Positions 3,417 through 31,118 of a DNA stretch of 48,763 nt are shown in pieces. Position numbers and translations under genes: made by a program. The stretch comes from a virus. The notes beneath the pieces were generated by a model that saw only the letters and a list, made by a program, of their open reading frames with translations, was not told where the DNA came from and made no database searches. Location: positions 1 through 48,763 of the IMG/VR virus record IMGVR_UViG_3300043640_000055, one strand, 5' to 3'. Within the stretch, counting starts at the first letter, position 1, and each line of letters begins with the position of its first letter.

Positions 3417-3486
3417 GGAATGGTTCAATCGAGAGCGGAGCAAACTGCATCTGGTTTGCGATCACCTTACCACGGAGAAACCTGAA

Positions 3487-3879: not shown

Positions 3880-3975
3880 AGAAGCCTAAGCGTTCTCAGT
3901 GTTGATGTGTTTCAATTGATCACCGAACAACCTGATACGGCATCGCGATCACCTAACTACGGAGAGGGCTGCACA

Positions 3976-6924: not shown

Positions 6925-7110
6925 ATGAGCGCGCTTATCGCAATGATTATCCCGATCATCGTTATTGTGGTCGTGGCCCTGGTTATAATTTGGGTAACCG
7001 AACGGTTCTCGCCTGACCCGTTAATCACGAAGATCATCAAGGTTGTCGTATTCGCCGTGGTGCTAATCGCACTGCTGATGAAGTTGGTTCCGTTGCTGGG
7101 GCTGAAATAA
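6925..7110 (+). CDS. Two-TM small membrane protein (61 aa); holin-like topology
   Basis: GGAG RBS. Two hydrophobic spans, IAMIIPIIVIVVVALVIIWV and VVVFAVVLIALLMKLVPLL. Confidence 0.55.
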   Translation: MSALIAMIIPIIVIVVVALVIIWVTERFSPDPLITKIIKVVVFAVVLIALLMKLVPLLGLK

Positions 7111-22490: not shown

Positions 22491-23866
22491 TGGCAATCAT
22501 TGACAACACGCTTGCCGCGCAAGTCCCGCAGTTCAACCCGGCAACTCCTCTTGCACAGGCCGCGCAAATACAGAATGCGCAAGCGGAAGCGCAGGCCAAT
22601 CAGTTCAAGCAGAACCAGACCGAAATGGGCGCTGAAATGCGCAGCCTTCAGCCGTTCGTCAACACTCCTGAATTTCCAGCGAAATGGGCTCAGGCCGCCG
22701 ATCGGTTGCGCCAGCGTGGCGTTATCGACGATCAGATGCATGAGCAATGGGCGAATGCACCGTCTCCGTTGCTCATGAAGTCGATCATTGCGAAGACGGA
22801 AGACCCGGCGCTGAGCTTCCGGAAGGATGAGGCCAAGCGAGAGCAGGGCAATACCGATCGTTCATTTGGGTTGCAAAAGACCAATGCTGACCGGACTTAT
22901 GGGCTGGCTGTTCGCGCTGCCGATCGCCTTGATGACCCGACGCCGGACGGGTTTGAAGCGAACCCCCTCGCCAAGACCGACGCGACCCAGCCGAAATATA
23001 TGCCTCTCTCGGGCGGCCCGAATGACCCGAATTATCTTCAATCCGCTGCCGCAGCGAAGGCCAAAATCCCCCGCATTCTTGCACCCGGCGAGGCTGTGGT
23101 GGACATGGGCACGGGGACGGAGACTTATAAAAACGCGGGCAAGGGCGGCGAAGGTGGCCCGCTTCCGCCTGAGACGGCTGATTTTGCTGCTGAACAAATC
23201 CTGTTGGGGGCGAAGGGTGTCAAGACCGGCTACGGCCGCGGCGCTCAGGGGCCGGAAGCTATCGCTCAAATTGATGCTGCCGTGGCGCGCAAGGCCAAGG
23301 AGCGCGGGATTACCGCCGCCGATCTTGTCCAGCGTGGGATTGATCTCGTTGGTGATACCGGCCGCGAACGAACAGCCGCGACGCAGGAAGGCCGCATGGC
23401 GTCGGCTGGCATTGAAGCGCAAGGCGCGATCAAGCTGGGCAAGGAGGCGTCCGACCTGGTGCCGCGTACAAGCTGGGTGCCGGTCAACAAGGCCATTCAG
23501 GCTTATCAGTCCAATACCAGCGATCCGAATTTGAAGCGGTTCGGCGCCGCCAACTTGACGATCATCAATACCTATGCCCGCGCGATCAACCCGAATGGTG
23601 TCGGCACCGTCGCGGACAAGGAACACGCCTCCGAAATGCTGCGGACGGCGGATGGCCCGGAAGCCTATAATGCCGTGCTCGATCAGTTGAATAAAGAAAT
23701 CGAGATGGCCCACAAGTCGCCGGCACTGGCGCGCAAGAGTTTCAAGGAGGAACGTGCGTCACGCACGGGGACCAAACTTCCGGCCCCCGATCGGTTCAAG
23801 CAACTGACCGGAACGGGCCTCTCCAAGGACGAGGCCTATTCCAAGATGCATGAGGAAGGCTACTGA
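22490..23866 (+). CDS. Internal virion/ejection protein (458 aa)
   Basis: Coupled starts and stops; position after the gp10-like gene. Confidence 0.55.
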   Translation: MAIIDNTLAAQVPQFNPATPLAQAAQIQNAQAEAQANQFKQNQTEMGAEMRSLQPFVNTPEFPAKWAQAADRLRQRGVIDDQMHEQWANAPSPLLMKSIIAKTEDPALSFRKDEAKREQGNTDRSFGLQKTNADRTYGLAVRAADRLDDPTPDGFEANPLAKTDATQPKYMPLSGGPNDPNYLQSAAAAKAKIPRILAPGEAVVDMGTGTETYKNAGKGGEGGPLPPETADFAAEQILLGAKGVKTGYGRGAQGPEAIAQIDAAVARKAKERGITAADLVQRGIDLVGDTGRERTAATQEGRMASAGIEAQGAIKLGKEASDLVPRTSWVPVNKAIQAYQSNTSDPNLKRFGAANLTIINTYARAINPNGVGTVADKEHASEMLRTADGPEAYNAVLDQLNKEIEMAHKSPALARKSFKEERASRTGTKLPAPDRFKQLTGTGLSKDEAYSKMHEEGY

Positions 23867-26058
23867 TGGCTGAGTTCGATCCCAAAGAGTTCGAAGCCGT
23901 CAAGTCGAAGCAGGCTGAGTTCGATCCCAAGGAATTTGCTGACGTTGGCGCAAACGGACGCCCGCGCGTCGTCATCAGCACCAGGCCCGATATCGGACAA
24001 GGCCGGGCGGCTCTTGAAGGCGCGCTTCAGGGCGCCAGCGCCAATTTCTCGGATGAGATTTACGGAGCTTCCAAGGCCTCTGGACTGCCTGATTGGATGG
24101 GTGGCTTCCGTGCCCCGGTTGGGGCTGCAAAACTCGCCTATGAAGGCGTGACGGGCCAGAACGACCCGAAATATGCCGGGAGCCTTCCCGATGTTCTTGG
24201 CGTGCCGGCGCCGACCGAGCCGCCCAAACGAGGAGAGGCCACCAAGATTTATGAGGAGGAGGTAGCCAACAAGCGCCAAGTCCTGAAAGATGCCGCAGAG
24301 CAGTATCCAAAAACCTATCTTGCTAGTGAGCTTGCGGGTGGGCTTGCGCTGCCCGTGGGTGCGGGTGGACAAGCGGCGACCATTCCACTGCGCGCCGCTG
24401 AAATGGCAAAGACCGGGGCCATCTATGGCGCCGCAGCGGGTGCTGGATCAGGAGAGGGCCTAACCGATAGCGCCGTGAAGGCTGGCGTGGGTGGGATAGC
24501 TGGCGGCGTTGTCGGTGCTGTCGCCGCTCCTGTCATGGAAGGCGTTGGCGCTGGCCTAAAATACGGATGGGAAAAGGGTGTTGCTGGTCCCGTTCGTGCG
24601 GCGATCAACCCCGAGGAGGCCGCCCTTAAGAAATTCGGTACCGCCGTCAAGCAGGACGCCAATATTGATCCAACCGCTCAAGGCCGTCTTACTCCTGCCG
24701 AGATGGCCGGGAGCGATACCGCTATGTTGGGCGACATGGGCGGGCCGGTTACCCGTCGTCTGGCGGATACCGCGGCTATCGTTCACCCCGAAACGGGCGG
24801 GGCACTCAACAAGGCCCTGACCGATCGCGCGGAAGGCCAGTTTGATCGCATCTCGGATTGGCTGAAAGGGACATTCAATTATCCGAACATTGCGCTTCAG
24901 AAAGAGGCCATTCAGAAAGCCGGAACCGAGGTCAATAGCGAGCGCTACAAGCGGGCCATGACTGACGGAGCCGGTGGAGTATGGTCGCCGGAATTGCAGC
25001 GGCTGGCGGGTTCGCCAAGCATTCAGGATGCTGCATACGGGGCCATCAAGGGTCTTCAGGATCGGGGTATCTCAGAAGGATTCCGGTCGCCTCGCTCGAT
25101 GCCCTTGGAGTTCAATCCGGATACGGGGCGCGCGACACTCGCCAAGACGGCGAACGGCAATGAGATTGTCCCAGATTTGCGGTTCTGGGATCAGGTCAAG
25201 CGCAATTTAGATGCCGGAATCGACAAGGCCGATCGGGCTGGTGACCGTGAGGCCGTTTCTCGGCTTACCGGCCTGAAGAAAAGCCTTGTCTCCGAACTGG
25301 ACAATGCCGTTCCGAGCTACGCCAAGGCCCGCGCGGGTGCCGCGCATTTCTTCGGTGAGGAAAACGCACTTGATGCCGGTAAGAGCTTCGTCACGAACAA
25401 TAAGGTAACCAACGACGAGGCGCGGCGCGAACTGGCGGCCATGAAGCCGAACGAACGCCAACTGTTTCAAGATGGGTTTGTCTCTCAATATCTCGAAACT
25501 TTGAGCCGGGTGGGAGATCGTCGGAACATCCTCAACAAGATTGCCGACAATCCGAACGCAAGAGAACGGCTTGAGATTGTCATGGGCAAGGAAAAATATG
25601 CGGAGTTCGATACCAAGCTTCGCATTGAGGGCATTCAGCAGCTCGCCAAGGACGCCATTCAGGGCAACTCATGGACGGCACGGCGATTGACGGATCTAGG
25701 TTTGATCGGCGGCGGCGGCATTGCGTCGATGGGCACTTACAACATGGACCCGAAGGAAATGGTGACGGGCGCGGTAATCGCCGCTCTCGCTTCAGGTGGC
25801 AAACGGATTGACGCGCGTGTCTCGCAGAAAATCGGCGAGATGTTCATGTCCAAAGACCCGATGCTGATGGACCGGGCGCTAAAGCTGGTTTCGAATAATC
25901 CCATCATGCGAAAGTCGCTGATCGATATGGACAAGCGCATCGTCGCTTCTGGTGCTGAGCGACCTCCGGGGAATGTCCCTGCTATCTCTGGACCACAGCC
26001 GGTTAGTCCAGTAGCCGCCCAAGAAGATAGCCCAAGCGCTCCAGGGCCAGCCTACTAA
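23866..26058 (+). CDS. Large internal virion/ejection protein (730 aa)
   Basis: Position and size. Gly/Ala-rich hydrophobic stretch AAAGAGSGEGL...GGIAGGVVGAVAAPV. N-terminal duplicated AEFDPKEF. Confidence 0.55.
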   Translation: MAEFDPKEFEAVKSKQAEFDPKEFADVGANGRPRVVISTRPDIGQGRAALEGALQGASANFSDEIYGASKASGLPDWMGGFRAPVGAAKLAYEGVTGQNDPKYAGSLPDVLGVPAPTEPPKRGEATKIYEEEVANKRQVLKDAAEQYPKTYLASELAGGLALPVGAGGQAATIPLRAAEMAKTGAIYGAAAGAGSGEGLTDSAVKAGVGGIAGGVVGAVAAPVMEGVGAGLKYGWEKGVAGPVRAAINPEEAALKKFGTAVKQDANIDPTAQGRLTPAEMAGSDTAMLGDMGGPVTRRLADTAAIVHPETGGALNKALTDRAEGQFDRISDWLKGTFNYPNIALQKEAIQKAGTEVNSERYKRAMTDGAGGVWSPELQRLAGSPSIQDAAYGAIKGLQDRGISEGFRSPRSMPLEFNPDTGRATLAKTANGNEIVPDLRFWDQVKRNLDAGIDKADRAGDREAVSRLTGLKKSLVSELDNAVPSYAKARAGAAHFFGEENALDAGKSFVTNNKVTNDEARRELAAMKPNERQLFQDGFVSQYLETLSRVGDRRNILNKIADNPNARERLEIVMGKEKYAEFDTKLRIEGIQQLAKDAIQGNSWTARRLTDLGLIGGGGIASMGTYNMDPKEMVTGAVIAALASGGKRIDARVSQKIGEMFMSKDPMLMDRALKLVSNNPIMRKSLIDMDKRIVASGAERPPGNVPAISGPQPVSPVAAQEDSPSAPGPAY

Positions 26059-26125: not shown

Positions 26126-27535
26126 ATGGCCGGACGTTTCAATAACCCGTTTCCTCAGTTCTTCGATTCATCGCCCAACGTCTATTCGGGCGGGAAGCTG
26201 TATTTCTACGCTTCTGGCACGTCCACGCCGCTTTCCACCTATACCACGAAAGCACTGGCGGTCGCCAATACTAACCCGGTTGTGCTCAATTCTGCCGGGC
26301 GTCCATCGACCGATATCTTCCTTCAGGACCTCGAATACAAGGTCGTCCTGAAGGACGTTAACGACGTGGTGATCTGGACCGCTGATCCGGTATCCCATCG
26401 CGATTCCGCCTTGGTGGCAAAGACCCTGACCGGGAACGGCTCTCCCAACGGGGCTGTGGCTGGCACAGCGGGCTCGGCAAGCATTCTGCCGGACTTCTAT
26501 TGGGATTATACCAACTCGGTTCTGTACGTCTGTACGGCCACGGGAACGGCTTCAACAGCGGTCTGGACAGCGGTTAATGCGTCTTCGGCCACGGCTGCTG
26601 TTCCGCCTCCGCAGGGGAGATTGACGCCGGTATCTGGCGCCAGCGTTATTTCTTCGGACGCAACATCTGTCACGGCCATCTATTATACGCCCGTCGTCGG
26701 AAATCTGGTCCCGATCTATAACGGAGCTTCGATGATCCCGACCGAGTTCTCAGAACTCACGCTGACACTGGCAGCAAGCCATGCGCTCAATACGATCTAT
26801 GACGTGTTCGTGTTTTCCAATTCCGGAGTTCTCACGCTGGCAACTGGTCCGGCATGGAATACGTCAACGGCAGGATCAGGAGCGCGGGGGACGGGAGCCA
26901 GCACCACGCAGATTGCGCGGGTCAAAGGTCTTTATGTTAACGCCGTCTCCATGACGGGCCGGAATGGTGCGAACACATACACGATCGGGGCTAACCTCGC
27001 GACCTATCTTGGTTCGATCTTCATTGATGGCACGGCGGGACAGGTGACCTGTCATACGTCTTACGGGCAGTCGCGAAAGTGGGGAGTGTGGAACGCCTTC
27101 AACCAACGGCAAATCCTCCTTAAGGCAGGGGATGCTACGGCGTCATGGGCGACGGCCACCGCCACATGGCGGCAGTCGCGAGCCGACGCCACGAATTTTG
27201 CGATGGCGTTCACTGGTTTAGCGGACGGCACCGTCACTGCAATGTTCGAGCAATACGTAACTCTCGCCATGGGTAACAATACGCCAGAGGCCAATATCGG
27301 CATCGGGATAAACTCGACGACGGTCCTGTCCGGGCAACTTGGAGGCGCGATGCTGTCGGATAATATCTCCGGCGTCTTCTTTATGAATGCCAATTTGGTT
27401 GCCAAAACCGATCTGGTTCCATCCCTCGGCGCCAACCAGTTCAACATGATCGAGCAGGCGCCGACCGTTTCTGCGAGCAGCACATACAACGGCGGTTCAT
27501 CCAAAATGCGGATGGACCTGTCCTATCCGGGCTAA
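26126..27535 (+). CDS. Tail fibre / receptor-binding protein (second set)
   Basis: N-terminal FFDSSPNVYSGGKLYFYASGTSTPLSTYT...NPVVLNSAGRP...YKVVLKDVNDVVIWTADPV is a common phage fibre N-domain pattern. Confidence 0.7.
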   Translation: MAGRFNNPFPQFFDSSPNVYSGGKLYFYASGTSTPLSTYTTKALAVANTNPVVLNSAGRPSTDIFLQDLEYKVVLKDVNDVVIWTADPVSHRDSALVAKTLTGNGSPNGAVAGTAGSASILPDFYWDYTNSVLYVCTATGTASTAVWTAVNASSATAAVPPPQGRLTPVSGASVISSDATSVTAIYYTPVVGNLVPIYNGASMIPTEFSELTLTLAASHALNTIYDVFVFSNSGVLTLATGPAWNTSTAGSGARGTGASTTQIARVKGLYVNAVSMTGRNGANTYTIGANLATYLGSIFIDGTAGQVTCHTSYGQSRKWGVWNAFNQRQILLKAGDATASWATATATWRQSRADATNFAMAFTGLADGTVTAMFEQYVTLAMGNNTPEANIGIGINSTTVLSGQLGGAMLSDNISGVFFMNANLVAKTDLVPSLGANQFNMIEQAPTVSASSTYNGGSSKMRMDLSYPG

Positions 27536-28035: not shown

Positions 28036-28326
28036 GCCGGGAACCTTTACCAACCCACTCCCACAATCATCAAGAGAACACCAAGCCGAATCTCAAAGGC
28101 CGCCAAGGGCTACGGCAATGGCGGCGACCACGGCAATCGAAGCGCCACCGTAAAGAACCAATGAAATTATTTGATCTGTCATAGGCGGAACCTACCACCA
28201 CAACCCCTGATTTCACAAGAGAACAGACCATGCCTCTTATCGTCTTTTAGCGAGGGAAGGCTGTTTCAATTTACCACCGAAACCGCGGGAAACGTCTCGC
28301 GATCACCCTACTAGCGAGAAATCTGC

Positions 28327-29238
28327 ATGAATTGGCCCAAGGACACTCAAGCGGCCCGGAACGCCTTTTATGGCGACCCTGGCAAGGGGCAGATCGCGTC
28401 CCAGATGGTGCCGGTCGTCCCGCCCTTCGCGATGTATTACGACGGCAAGCGGGTGAAGGCGATCCAGTTCCACCAGAAGGCCGCGCCCGCGCTGCTCGCC
28501 GCCCTCAATGAGATCTGGGACTATTGCCAGCACGATCAGGCCAAAGTCGATGCCTCCGGGGCGTCCAATTACAACGGCGCCTATAACCATCGCATGGTCC
28601 GCGGCTCGTCCACCAAGTGGTCGAACCATGCCTATGCCACTGCGATCGACCTGAACGCTGGCGAGAATGCCCTTGGCGTCAAGAAGGGCACGATGCCGCA
28701 ATTCATCGTCGATGCCTTCTGCCGGCAGGGTGCGATGTGGGGCGGCTGGTATAACGACCGCCCCGATTGGATGCATTTCGAATTTGTGGACAACGGCGGG
28801 CGCAAGCCCAAGTCCGCGCCTCCAGTATTTGGCGCAAGCGTTCCGGTCGCGAGTGCGCCAGCTGACGAACTTGAAGAGGATACCGAGCACGAGGCCGAAA
28901 CCGCGCCTGCCCCGAAGGCAATGTCAACGTCCAAAATCGGCGTGACGCAGATCGCTACCGGCACCACGGCAGCGGTTGTCGGAACCGCTCAAGTCGCGTC
29001 ATCCGTGGTCGGCCAAGTCAATGACGTTGCCGATCAGGTTTCGACGGTAACCGACAAGGCCGGATCGATCATCGAAACCACTAAAACGGTCGTGGCTATC
29101 CCAAAGCCCGGCTTCTGGTTCCATGTCCTGCACGCCATTACGAGCCCGGTTTTCATCGCCTGCGTCTGCCTGATGATCGTGGTCGCGTGCGGGCTGACTT
29201 GGTACTGGCGCCGGCAGCACGCAAAGGCGGGTGTCTGA
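28327..29238 (+). CDS. Endolysin: M15-family zinc peptidase with acidic linker and C-terminal TM anchor
   Basis: SNHAYATAIDLN (H-x6-D type) and DWMHFEF motifs. C-terminal hydrophobic span ITSPVFIACVCLMIVVACGLTWYW followed by RRQHAK. Confidence 0.8.
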   Translation: MNWPKDTQAARNAFYGDPGKGQIASQMVPVVPPFAMYYDGKRVKAIQFHQKAAPALLAALNEIWDYCQHDQAKVDASGASNYNGAYNHRMVRGSSTKWSNHAYATAIDLNAGENALGVKKGTMPQFIVDAFCRQGAMWGGWYNDRPDWMHFEFVDNGGRKPKSAPPVFGASVPVASAPADELEEDTEHEAETAPAPKAMSTSKIGVTQIATGTTAAVVGTAQVASSVVGQVNDVADQVSTVTDKAGSIIETTKTVVAIPKPGFWFHVLHAITSPVFIACVCLMIVVACGLTWYWRRQHAKAGV

Positions 29239-29624
29239 TGTGGGCTCTCTCGTATCTGTGGGCGAATTTCGCCCTAATCCTTGTCGTGACCTTGGCTGTT
29301 GTTGGCCTCGGGTTTCTCGCGTTCTTCCTGAAGAACTGGAAGGCCGCGCTCGCCGCCGTTGTTGTTCTGGGTCTGGGCTTTGCCTACATGCAGATCGACA
29401 AGAACGCCTATCAGCGGCGAGTTAGTGAGGAAGCGGCCGAACGGGTCGATGCCCTCAAAAAGCAGATCAAAAACATGAACGAAGCGGCAGAAGCCGACGC
29501 GCTGCGAGCCATTGAAGATGCCAACAAGATTGCAGAACTGGAAACCAAAGCCAATGAAACTCCTGCGAATAGCGGCGCTTGTCTCGATATCGATGGCGCT
29601 CGCCGGGTGCGAAACATCAAGTGA
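29238..29624 (+). CDS. i-spanin-like membrane protein (two hydrophobic spans plus coiled coil)
   Basis: ATG overlaps the endolysin stop (TGATG). NFALILVVTLAVVGLGFLAFFL and AALAAVVVLGLGFAYM, then a charged helical tail. A lipoprotein gene is embedded at its 3' end. Confidence 0.55.
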   Translation: MWALSYLWANFALILVVTLAVVGLGFLAFFLKNWKAALAAVVVLGLGFAYMQIDKNAYQRRVSEEAAERVDALKKQIKNMNEAAEADALRAIEDANKIAELETKANETPANSGACLDIDGARRVRNIK

Positions 29625-29820
29625 CGTGAAGCCGGGAGATTTACCCCCGGTCCCGTCAGATATTCAGGTTTGCTTCCGCAAGAGCGCGTCCATTATCCCC
29701 GACCGTGCGTTGTCGGTCTATGACGTGGAATCGCTCTGGAAACAGGACCGGATCAAGGTTGTCGTCATGGCGAAGTGCGGCAATCGGCTGGTGGCTTGGT
29801 ACAACGGGCTGCGAAGATAA
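29554..29820 (+). CDS. o-spanin (outer-membrane lipoprotein), overlapping arrangement
   Basis: MKLLRIAALVSISMALAGC lipobox, Pro-rich mature N-terminus. Starts inside the previous gene in another frame. Confidence 0.7.
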   Translation: MKLLRIAALVSISMALAGCETSSDVKPGDLPPVPSDIQVCFRKSASIIPDRALSVYDVESLWKQDRIKVVVMAKCGNRLVAWYNGLRR

Positions 29821-29947: not shown

Positions 29948-30319
29948 ATGTGGGAGCCTGGGGTCATCATCGCCCTCGTCATGGGGGCTGTTGCCATCCT
30001 GAGTAACGTGATTTCGGTCACGGTTTTCGTGGTCAGGCTGGGTGGGAAAATAGACCTGAACAATTCGACGGTCATCGGCAAAATCGATGTCATCGATCTT
30101 CGGGTTAAAGGCGTGGAGGCGGGCATATCCGACCTTAAAAACACCGACCGCCGTCTTTCGCTCGTTGAAGACAGGCAACAAGCCCTTGCTACCCGTCAGG
30201 GCAATATGGAGAAGGATAACCTCCTGATCCGTGACGACTTAGGCAAGCTGCATCAGGGGCTGGACCGTCACGGCACGGTAATGCAGCGGTTTAACGAACA
30301 GCAATTTTCCAAAACCTAA
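29948..30319 (+). CDS. Single-TM coiled-coil protein (123 aa); role in lysis unclear
   Basis: GVIIALVMGAVAILSNVISVTVFVV followed by a heptad-like charged region. Confidence 0.5.
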   Translation: MWEPGVIIALVMGAVAILSNVISVTVFVVRLGGKIDLNNSTVIGKIDVIDLRVKGVEAGISDLKNTDRRLSLVEDRQQALATRQGNMEKDNLLIRDDLGKLHQGLDRHGTVMQRFNEQQFSKT

Positions 30320-30338: not shown

Positions 30339-30686
30339 ATGATCTCTCGCCTCGTTCTGGCGGCGCTGGCGCTTGCCTGTGTCGTTACCCCTTCCTATGC
30401 AGCCCAACTTTGCGAGGCGAGTCATTACGGCCATGGCGATGGCTACAACGGGCGTAGGACGGCCAACGGTGAGATATTCGACACGTACCGGCATATGACG
30501 GCGGCGATGCGGATACCGCAGCCGTTCGGCTCCTATGTGACTGTGACGAACCTTGCAAACGGGAGAAGTGTGAGGGTCCGCATCAACGACCGCGGCCCGT
30601 TCATTCGGGGCCGGTGCGTGGATCTGTCCTACGTGGCGTCTCGGGCTATCGGGATGGGTGGTACGGCTCGGGTGAGCGTCCAATGA
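30339..30686 (+). CDS. Secreted RlpA-like double-psi beta-barrel (lytic transglycosylase-type) protein
   Basis: Signal peptide MISRLVLAALALACVVTPSYA. ASHYG...GRRTANGEIFD...AA....PFGSYVTVTNLANGRSVRVRINDRGPF is the RlpA/DPBB signature. Confidence 0.75.
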   Translation: MISRLVLAALALACVVTPSYAAQLCEASHYGHGDGYNGRRTANGEIFDTYRHMTAAMRIPQPFGSYVTVTNLANGRSVRVRINDRGPFIRGRCVDLSYVASRAIGMGGTARVSVQ

Positions 30687-30781
30687 TAAAGGCCCTGATC
30701 GCAATCGCCGTTGTCATCGTGATCCTGTTCATTGCCTACTTGTGGCAGGAAAGGCGGGAGGCGAAGCGGTGTTTGAAGTAA
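30683..30781 (+). CDS. Micro membrane peptide (32 aa)
   Basis: ATGA-coupled to the RlpA-like gene. MIKALIAIAVVIVILFIAYLWQERREAKRCLK. Overlaps the 3' end of the convergent gene 30729..30947. Confidence 0.35.
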   Translation: MIKALIAIAVVIVILFIAYLWQERREAKRCLK

Positions 30782-31071: not shown

Positions 31072-31118
31072 AGCAGGGTGATCGCGATATCTCGCAGATC
31101 GTTCGGTGTTCGATTGAA
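31072..31118 (-). repeat. Intergenic repeat R2, copy 1 (core GGGTGATCGCGATATNTCNCAGATCNTTCGG plus TCGATTGAA)
   Basis: Read directly. Lies 18 nt upstream of the GTG of 30944..31054. Confidence 0.9.

Follow-up and report, generated by a model that had tools for sequence, protein, structure and literature searches.

The window analysed here, a 48,763 bp stretch that is the entire IMG/VR virus record IMGVR_UViG_3300043640_000055, encodes at 28327..29238 on the plus strand a protein of 303 residues that is very likely, from its sequence and predicted structure, to be a phage endolysin carrying a real membrane anchor. An N-terminal zinc peptidase domain is followed in this protein by an acidic linker and by a C-terminal module that contains a putative transmembrane (TM) helix and ends in a basic tail. 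It is tentatively proposed that the enzyme is tethered at the cytoplasmic face of the inner membrane and gains access to the cell wall through a late membrane lesion; taken as a whole, the explanation that joins the identity of the endolysin, its anchor module and this mechanism is given an even chance of being correct. Although the arrangement itself is not unprecedented, the pairing of a non-homologous anchor module with a catalytic domain of the M15 type looks new.

The record, rated 100% complete, has direct terminal repeats of 127 nt. Since it encodes an integrase as well as a large terminase and portal, head and tail proteins, it represents a temperate tailed phage, and the assignment of the endolysin to a complete temperate soil phage is well supported. 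Related loci were found in Nitrobacter and Bradyrhizobium genomes, and the host is therefore very probably a member of the Nitrobacteraceae, the relatives of these two genera.

Architecture of the endolysin

The gene comprises the following parts.
28327..29238, plus strand: endolysin open reading frame (ORF), ATG start, 303 residues
28327..28821, plus strand: predicted catalytic domain (residues 1–165), zinc LAS peptidase, Peptidase_M15_4
28822..28920, plus strand: Pro/Ala-rich acidic linker (residues 166–198), eight Asp/Glu against one Lys/Arg; predicted local distance difference test (pLDDT) score below 50
28921..29106, plus strand: first part of the putative anchor module (residues 199–260), rich in Thr/Val/Ala/Gly/Ser and weakly hydrophobic, opening at the conserved Met199
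29107..29208, plus strand: uncharged hydrophobic segment of 34 residues (261–294), comprising a predicted short helix GFWFHVLHAI, a conserved Ser/Thr-Pro break and a predicted TM helix of 20–21 residues
29209..29238, plus strand: basic tail RRQHAKAGV and stop codon, three Lys/Arg and no Asp/Glu

The identification of residues 1–165 as a zinc LAS (VanY-like) peptidase domain is well supported by sequence motifs and by modelling. An earlier note on this DNA, which had described an M15 endolysin with a C-terminal TM anchor, had located zinc-peptidase motifs in the first ~165 residues, and these are indeed present (SNHAYATAIDLN at residues 99–110 and DWMHFEF at residues 147–153). Residues 93–152 match Pfam family PF13539 (Peptidase_M15_4) with 45 bits, against a curated cut-off of 25, and the protein matches PHROG 17001, annotated 'endolysin', with an E-value of 3.7e-14. 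The metal ligands of the His-x6-Asp plus distal His pattern (H101, D108 and H150) are invariant in 40 homologues and align with the motif of Ply500. In an AlphaFold2 model built on 14 homologues, a check that the earlier note had proposed, the catalytic domain has a pLDDT of ~90, and its top Foldseek matches are 2vo9, 6akv, 5opz and 4jid, with probabilities of 0.82–0.99 and weak E-values (6e-3 or higher). Among solved structures, its closest relatives are the l-alanyl-d-glutamate peptidases Ply500 (2vo9), LysB4 (6akv) and ChiX, as well as the VanY-like LdcB. While Ply500, LysB4, ChiX (5opz) and LysECD7 (8q2g) share the catalytic fold and the His/Asp/His zinc site with the window enzyme, they are only ~20% identical to it and are soluble or equipped with cell-wall-binding domains, lacking a membrane anchor. 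In agreement with an endolysin function, the gene of this wall hydrolase is the first of a late lysis cassette and adjoins the spanin genes. Present annotations name proteins of this kind only as 'M15 family metallopeptidase', 'putative chitinase' or 'N-acetylmuramidase'. The idea that C67 and C132 form an obligatory disulfide was considered and dropped, as both cysteines are missing in some homologues with the short type of anchor found in the window enzyme.

The succession of acidic linker, Thr/Val/Ala-rich region, hydrophobic helix and basic tail given in the earlier note was also recovered. Residues 176–192 of the linker include eight Asp/Glu and no Lys/Arg. Homology between proteins with differing catalytic domains begins at the end of the linker, at a PAPK-x-M motif, and the linker is likely to be the place where catalytic domain and anchor module were joined by recombination. 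The region that follows (residues 199–260) consists to 74% of Thr, Val, Ala, Gly, Ser and Gln and has a pLDDT of 27–41. By contrast with the weak hydrophobicity of this region, the 19-residue Kyte–Doolittle maximum reaches 2.56 in residues 261–294, a value attained by 27 of 20000 shuffles of the protein (mean 1.42, standard deviation 0.29), and AlphaFold2 places helices at residues 263–272 and 274–300 with a pLDDT of 83–91. Gly262, Pro274 and Phe276 are invariant in 14 short-type homologues. The helix spanning residues 274–294 has an Eisenberg mean hydrophobicity <H> of 0.74 and a hydrophobic moment of only 0.06, and is therefore TM-like rather than an amphipathic surface helix; for the same reason, an amphipathic C-terminal helix active on the outer membrane was discarded as an interpretation.

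The first 260 residues contain no hydrophobic window, so that the endolysin has neither an N-terminal signal nor a signal-arrest-release (SAR) sequence, and a hydrophobic N-terminus was likewise not found in its relatives, except in two with N-terminal extensions. With no N-terminal signal and a helix of TM length (residues 274–294) close to the C-terminus and followed by a basic tail, the protein has the layout of the endolysins whose transmembrane domain (TMD) is C-terminal. It also resembles tail-anchored proteins in that it lacks a signal peptide and its single TM helix stops 9 residues short of the C-terminus. It does not conform to a SAR endolysin: the helix is C-terminal, its 19-residue hydrophobicity is 2.56 and its most hydrophobic 17 residues contain 24% Gly/Ala/Ser/Thr. 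The last 105 residues of the endolysin constitute a separate, exchangeable membrane-anchor module. More speculatively, the 34-residue uncharged run, with its invariant Pro274 and basic residues on both sides, could form a re-entrant hairpin with both ends in the cytoplasm.

The earlier note had conceded that the ORF might be two genes joined by a frameshift or sequencing error in the linker. An artefact of this kind, whether by frameshift or by misassembly, would account for the fall in third-position GC content from 0.82 in the catalytic part to 0.54 in the linker and 0.65 in the Thr/Val/Ala-rich region, which moreover is not confidently folded. However, beyond the linker the coding signature resumes without a change of frame (0.86 in the TM helix and tail), 13 independent homologue clusters of 273–314 residues preserve the full-length architecture, more than 90 longer homologues also keep one continuous frame through different linkers, and five other catalytic domains carry the module as an in-frame fusion. 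The artefact is consequently regarded as barely conceivable, and the dip in third-position GC (28822–29106) is better read as consistent with a recombination joint or a recent domain junction.

Anchor modules in relatives and in known systems

A search of 1.84 billion representative sequences returned 91 relatives of at least 240 residues, 52 of which have a TM-like C-terminal helix, with many unrelated helix sequences among them; an uncharged hydrophobic C-terminal run is present in 110 of the 120 closest clusters. The catalytic domain is highly conserved (up to 89% identical), and everything beyond residue 165 is modular. Relatives of 158–170 residues that consist of the catalytic domain only, such as that of Aminobacter phage Erebus, indicate that the domain can work as an ordinary cytoplasmic endolysin.

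Most relatives carry a long-type anchor, in which PG_binding_1 precedes a weakly hydrophobic helix; an acidic loop then leads to a helix rich in Gly and Ala, and the tail is basic and conserved. This module matches the C-terminal end (positions 657–769) of PHROG 181 'endolysin' with an E-value of 5e-19 and is also found behind GH19-like and pesticin-like domains in Bradyrhizobium proteins, those named 'putative chitinase' matching PHROG 181 over positions 331–769. An uncultured Myoviridae record (MW202613) combines M15_4, PG_binding_1 and a C-terminal helix in a protein annotated 'N-acetylmuramidase'. The anchor class is thus already present in phage protein families, without comment, in the form of PHROG 181 (GH19-like domain, PG_binding_1 and C-terminal membrane module); the window enzyme has a different catalytic domain, and its short-type module does not match this family, the best hit having an E-value of 0.14.

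The short-type anchor of the window enzyme is rare, with 7 clusters at 90% identity, and occurs behind five other catalytic domains, namely GH19 (L014), Amidase_2 (P0233), TIGR02594 (P0243) and two unassigned domains (P0121 and P0270). In addition, two stand-alone proteins, P0248 (105 residues, on a contig of 3851 bp) and P0231 (99 residues, on one of 1144 bp), start exactly at the conserved Met199 and are 52 and 62% identical, respectively, to residues 199–303 of the endolysin. Among 401 family genomes, the module gave one real match (L014), a match in L015 being spurious on inspection and those in L016 and L017 being weak (E-values above 0.004). Neither the short-type nor the long-type anchor module found a match in phage records by tblastn, and the window protein and its module, searched against 50,697 such records, gave no full-length or anchor match and only catalytic-domain matches to other M15 proteins. 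A scan of viral contigs with the window module retrieved no relative and a metagenome scan with P0248 no match; a degenerate DNA pattern for TWYWRRQH produced eight hits, attributable to chance only, and ESM Atlas scores for the anchor module (0.85 or less) were uninformative.

Three of the retrieved proteins merit separate mention. P0121 (267 residues) carries the anchor module of the window enzyme at 78% identity behind residues 1–160 that match no Pfam, PHROG or NCBIfam family; this N-terminal domain sits in the position of the wall hydrolase and is therefore a candidate catalytic domain of a kind not yet described. Its sole relative in phage records is a hypothetical protein of the uncultured phage MW202785. 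In L004 (5992–7506), a protein of 504 residues, called 'lysozyme family protein' in the source, shares the M15 domain but ends in a long Lys/Arg/Pro/Ala-rich tail in place of the helix, so that the family also has another type of C-terminus. In L011 (7992–9167), from a metagenome-assembled genome (MAG) of Bradyrhizobium ivorense, a lysin homologue is disrupted by a TGA and a TAG and appears as two ORFs; a prophage copy in decay or an error of assembly is the probable cause.

The mobility of the short-type module bears on an improbable alternative, in which the 105-residue C-terminal module is itself hole-forming, fused to the enzyme and perhaps also translated alone from Met199, so that no separate holin is needed. 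The module opens at a conserved Met in eight of nine subtype-a sequences, behind four different catalytic domains, which is also where P0248 and P0231 begin; it is small and holin-like, with a TM helix and a basic C-terminal tail, and the drop in third-position GC across the linker is the mark of a fusion joint. Moreover, no holin family is represented in the cassette, and M4Lys, an endolysin with a C-terminal TMD, needs this domain to lyse without a holin, the TMD alone being bacteriostatic (PMC7143992). On the other hand, co-expression of the M4Lys TMD with a separate catalytic domain was constructed in that study, autonomous hole formation not being demonstrated there (PMC7143992), and neither the module nor P0248 matches a holin family in PHROGs or Pfam, even at an E-value of 1. 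The stand-alone proteins may be frameshift or gene-calling artefacts, P0231 appearing to be frameshifted internally, and in most related loci a conserved small membrane protein, itself a possible holin, follows the spanin genes. A GAAGG motif before the ATG of Met199 was dropped as an internal ribosome-binding site supporting a nested gene, because it lies only 2 nt away and is explained by conserved Pro-Lys codons. If this alternative were true, the window phage and its relatives would lyse their hosts without a separate holin, and the module starting at Met199 could be, although we consider this doubtful, a self-contained mobile 'membrane-access' cassette for any wall-degrading domain (six were found: M15_4, GH19, Amidase_2, TIGR02594 and two unassigned), perhaps as a gene of its own (P0248), that supplies the holin function.

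The earlier note had regarded a C-terminal anchor as unusual beside the N-terminal SAR types. The window enzyme indeed lacks an N-terminal SAR sequence, but endolysins with a C-terminal TMD have been published since 2019, namely the Siskin endolysin (PMC6498227), M4Lys (PMC7143992), that of Enc34 (PMC8943055) and LysAP (PMC8879335), and the arrangement is frequent among the relatives. These endolysins form a class by architecture and not a homologous family; the tblastn searches revealed no sequence relationship of the four published examples to the window anchor, and none of them contains an M15 domain. LysAP, from Acidovorax oryzae phage AP1, is similar to the window enzyme in having an N-terminal catalytic domain, no signal peptide and a single C-terminal TM helix (residues 194–216 of 227) followed by a short basic tail, and deletion of its TMD abolishes both lysis and membrane localization (PMC8879335). 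It differs in being a GH24 muramidase from a phage with a betaproteobacterial host, with an adjacent holin, HolAP, and no spanin found. Enc34 ORF39, M4Lys (from BSPM4) and the Siskin endolysin, from chi-like and related phages, have in common with the window a C-terminal membrane domain, overlapping i-spanin and o-spanin genes and a protein of ~12 kDa with one N-terminal TM helix. Their catalytic domain is in contrast of the PHA02564 type (lysozyme-like fold), their hosts are enterobacterial and the small membrane protein is encoded first in their cassettes, rather than last as in the window. Their anchor consists of two helices, resembling the long-type relatives, while that of the window enzyme has one full helix and a short one.

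Orientation of the anchor and access to the wall

The products encoded directly downstream of the endolysin are relevant to its mode of action.
29238..29624, plus strand: i-spanin, two N-terminal hydrophobic spans and a coiled coil; weak match to PHROG 739 (Rz-like spanin), E-value 8.4e-5
29554..29820, plus strand: o-spanin lipoprotein, lipobox LAGC; its start lies, in a different frame, within the end of the i-spanin gene
29948..30319, plus strand: membrane protein of 123 residues, predicted to have 4 residues outside, one TM helix and a helical cytoplasmic part of 94 residues

In the mechanism favoured here, the enzyme would be made without a signal sequence and would fold in the cytoplasm, after which the C-terminal helix would insert into the inner membrane in tail-anchored fashion, leaving the catalytic domain to wait at the cytoplasmic face on a flexible tether of ~95 residues. 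A late membrane lesion or depolarization would then open the way of the enzyme to the wall, the likely source of the lesion being the protein encoded at 29948..30319, with its N-terminus outside and its C-terminus in the cytoplasm (N-out/C-in), perhaps together with the anchor helices themselves; the coupled i-spanin/o-spanin pair would subsequently break the outer membrane. We infer the orientation of the tether, its trigger and the role of 29948..30319, and this cytoplasm-facing tether, gated by a membrane lesion, is held with slightly less than even confidence.

The position of the TM helix, 9 residues from the C-terminus, implies that it leaves the ribosome only after termination, and that targeting is therefore post-translational and the zinc enzyme has time to fold. 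In 121 long-type relatives with a two-helix anchor, the catalytic domains of which are up to 89% identical to that of the window enzyme, the net charge is +1.45 before the first helix, –2.7 in the loop and +2.35 in the tail. This basic/acidic/basic pattern predicts a hairpin with both termini in the cytoplasm (N-in/C-in) and thus favours a cytoplasm-facing enzyme. The lack of a signal peptide speaks for the same orientation, as does the ability of this domain to serve other phages as a soluble endolysin. The endolysin of Siskin, which has two C-terminal TMDs, is likewise predicted to be N-in/C-in, while the putative holin of this phage is predicted to be N-out/C-in (PMC6498227), as is 29948..30319.

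Several observations weigh against this reading. Single-helix anchors have a net charge of +1.83 in the 12 residues after the helix and of –0.23 before it, with more positive charge on the tail than on the other flank in 41 of 52 clusters, and in the window enzyme a charge of +3 after the helix compares with two Lys/Arg and one Asp/Glu in the 15 residues before it; by the positive-inside rule, this bias points to a cytoplasmic C-terminus, and the tail-anchored orientation would have to push the basic tail across the membrane. The region that would provide the tether (residues 169–262) has no confident structure in the AlphaFold2 model. M4Lys (PMC7143992) and Enc34 (PMC8943055) lyse Escherichia coli without a holin provided that the TMD is present, M4Lys acting independently also of Sec (PMC7143992), and azide delayed lysis by LysAP, which its authors interpret as being exported (PMC8879335). 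Finally, no holin family is detectable in the cassette in PHROGs, Pfam or NCBIfam, which leaves the lesion-maker an assumption.

The same charge bias, shared by the window protein, lends itself to a rather unlikely alternative in which the enzyme is the mirror image of a SAR endolysin: the basic tail would be cytoplasmic, and the catalytic domain would be exported and held inactive in the periplasm until released by depolarization or by a releasin-like action of 29948..30319, with no need for a true holin. In phage Mu, which has no holin, the releasin gp25 frees the membrane-held endolysin gp22 (PMC9239132). The SAR endolysins P1 Lyz, phage 21 R and Mu gp22, which are paired with pinholins or with the Mu gp25 releasin, are comparable to the window enzyme, as read here, in being membrane-tethered, in that release is a regulated step and in the presence of a small type I membrane protein downstream (PMC9239132), and the Mu cassette resembles that of the window, which has no recognizable holin family. 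The layout of LysAP is the same as that of the window enzyme, its single C-terminal TMD being followed by R218, K220, R222 and R223, and its authors refer to a 'C-terminal SAR' (PMC8879335); M4Lys, which lyses without a holin, is predicted to be N-out/C-in (PMC7143992).

The layout of 29948..30319, with 4 residues outside, one TM helix in the N-out/C-in orientation, a helical cytoplasmic domain and a position at most five genes downstream of the endolysin, is that of Mu gp25 (PMC9239132), and an ESM Atlas feature score of 0.92 (rank 23) to a DUF2730 (Mu releasin) cluster provides a lead only. However, the protein has no match to Pfam DUF2730 (PF10805) even at an E-value of 1, BLASTP against Mu gp25 was negative and its cytoplasmic part is not acidic (16 Lys/Arg and 14 Asp/Glu). 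The SAR domain of SAR endolysins is N-terminal, Sec-targeted and weakly hydrophobic, unlike the C-terminal helix of the window enzyme, the strong hydrophobicity of which (2.56) and low Gly/Ala/Ser/Thr content make spontaneous release unlikely. The two-helix anchors of close relatives are predicted to be N-in, and no known pathway exports a folded N-terminal domain of 260 residues by means of a signal that emerges last, as stated for Enc34 ORF39 by its authors (PMC8943055).

How a C-terminally anchored endolysin reaches the wall is an open question according to both the Enc34 (PMC8943055) and the LysAP (PMC8879335) papers. The proteins described here form a natural set, in which a nearly identical catalytic domain occurs with no anchor, a one-helix anchor or a two-helix anchor and six different catalytic domains share one anchor module, in the setting of a cassette without a recognizable holin. 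These natural combinations make clean swap experiments possible and the export question directly testable. They also suggest that C-terminal anchoring is a general, under-described form of lysis control in phages of Alphaproteobacteria, and not an oddity of chi-like phages.

The lysis cassette and neighbouring genes

The remaining features of interest are as follows.
28297..28327, plus strand: 31-nt repeated element (TCGCGATCACC...), ending at the first base of the endolysin ATG
30339..30686, plus strand: RlpA-like double-psi beta-barrel protein, predicted to be secreted (N-terminal signal-like helix), Pfam PF03330 (DPBB_1), 57 bits; end of the cassette
6925..7110, plus strand: protein of 61 residues with two very hydrophobic helices (Kyte–Doolittle 3.6 and 2.9), upstream of the terminase gene

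The 31-nt element (family D5) is present at 3456–3486 and 3943–3973, in the early region, and at 28297–28327, with 77% identity to the reference copy, and is a candidate for a phage-specific promoter or leader of the lysis genes. Its core is the reverse complement of part of a 44-nt repeat located at 31075, 35018 and 35850.

The tail-fibre genes (23866..26058 and 26126..27535) are located shortly upstream of the endolysin gene. Podovirus-like ejection proteins can pair wall hydrolase domains with membrane segments, and the enzyme might accordingly be a virion-borne tail or ejection protein that opens the wall at infection and then inserts into the host membrane. Such a role is very unlikely, since two minus-strand genes and the upstream repeat element separate the endolysin gene from the structural genes, and the endolysin is translationally coupled to the spanin pair, its stop codon overlapping the ATG of the i-spanin gene (TGATG). 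The gene is also the sole wall-peptidase gene found in the cassette and matches PHROG 'endolysin' families, and the order of lysin followed by spanins recurs in most related loci.

These related loci comprise seven soil viral contigs, Nitrobacter sp. TKz-YC01 (two copies), N. winogradskyi and two Bradyrhizobium-type MAGs. Most of them have the order lysin, i-spanin, o-spanin, small helical protein with an N-terminal TM segment and, often, an RlpA-like gene, and the overlapped i-spanin/o-spanin arrangement is kept in most; the RlpA-like gene follows the cassette in L001, L002, L003, L007 and L011. L004, in which the 504-residue lysin has no C-terminal helix, is an exception with different downstream genes. 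Some loci insert, between the o-spanin and the small N-terminal-TM protein, a multi-span protein of 140–157 residues (L002 7842–8264, L009 9617–10090, L010 1776–2249 and L012 9873–10295) that matches no family, is missing in the window phage and is a possible holin.

The earlier note had observed that no canonical holin adjoins the endolysin, and indeed no holin family from PHROGs, Pfam or NCBIfam was detected for 29238..29624, 29948..30319, 6925..7110, 30683..30781, the anchor module or P0248. Of the three holin candidates that it had offered, 29238..29624 turned out to encode the i-spanin. For 29948..30319 the proposal survives in part: this type I membrane protein, which resembles the Mu releasin or the putative holin of Siskin in its layout, is a candidate for a holin or for a releasin-like protein acting with the anchored endolysin, but matches no holin family, and no Pfam or PHROG family at all was found for it below an E-value of 0.01. 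The third, 6925..7110, which lacks a charged C-terminal tail and matches no PHROG or NCBIfam family, is an unverified candidate for a remote holin.

A protein of ~100–123 residues closes most related cassettes (L001 8051–8404, L003 7891–8259, L009 10074–10382, L014 2061–2393 and 29948–30319 of the window). In these proteins a very short N-terminal stretch lies outside, and a single TM helix leads through a basic junction into a cytoplasmic domain that is helical, as in Mu gp25 and the putative 'class IV' holin of Siskin; their sequences are mostly unrelated to one another. The i-spanin has two spans in the window (29238–29624) and in L014 (1263–1937), the only other retrievable short-type locus, where the lysin is of the GH19 type, while one-span i-spanins accompany long-type anchors; from these two cases, the anchor and spanins may be exchanged together as a block, or the two genes may keep their numbers of helices in balance. 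Finally, a single-helix peptide of 32 residues (30683–30781) overlaps the stop codon of the RlpA-like gene (ATGA) and gives weak PHROG matches to unnamed small membrane proteins only.

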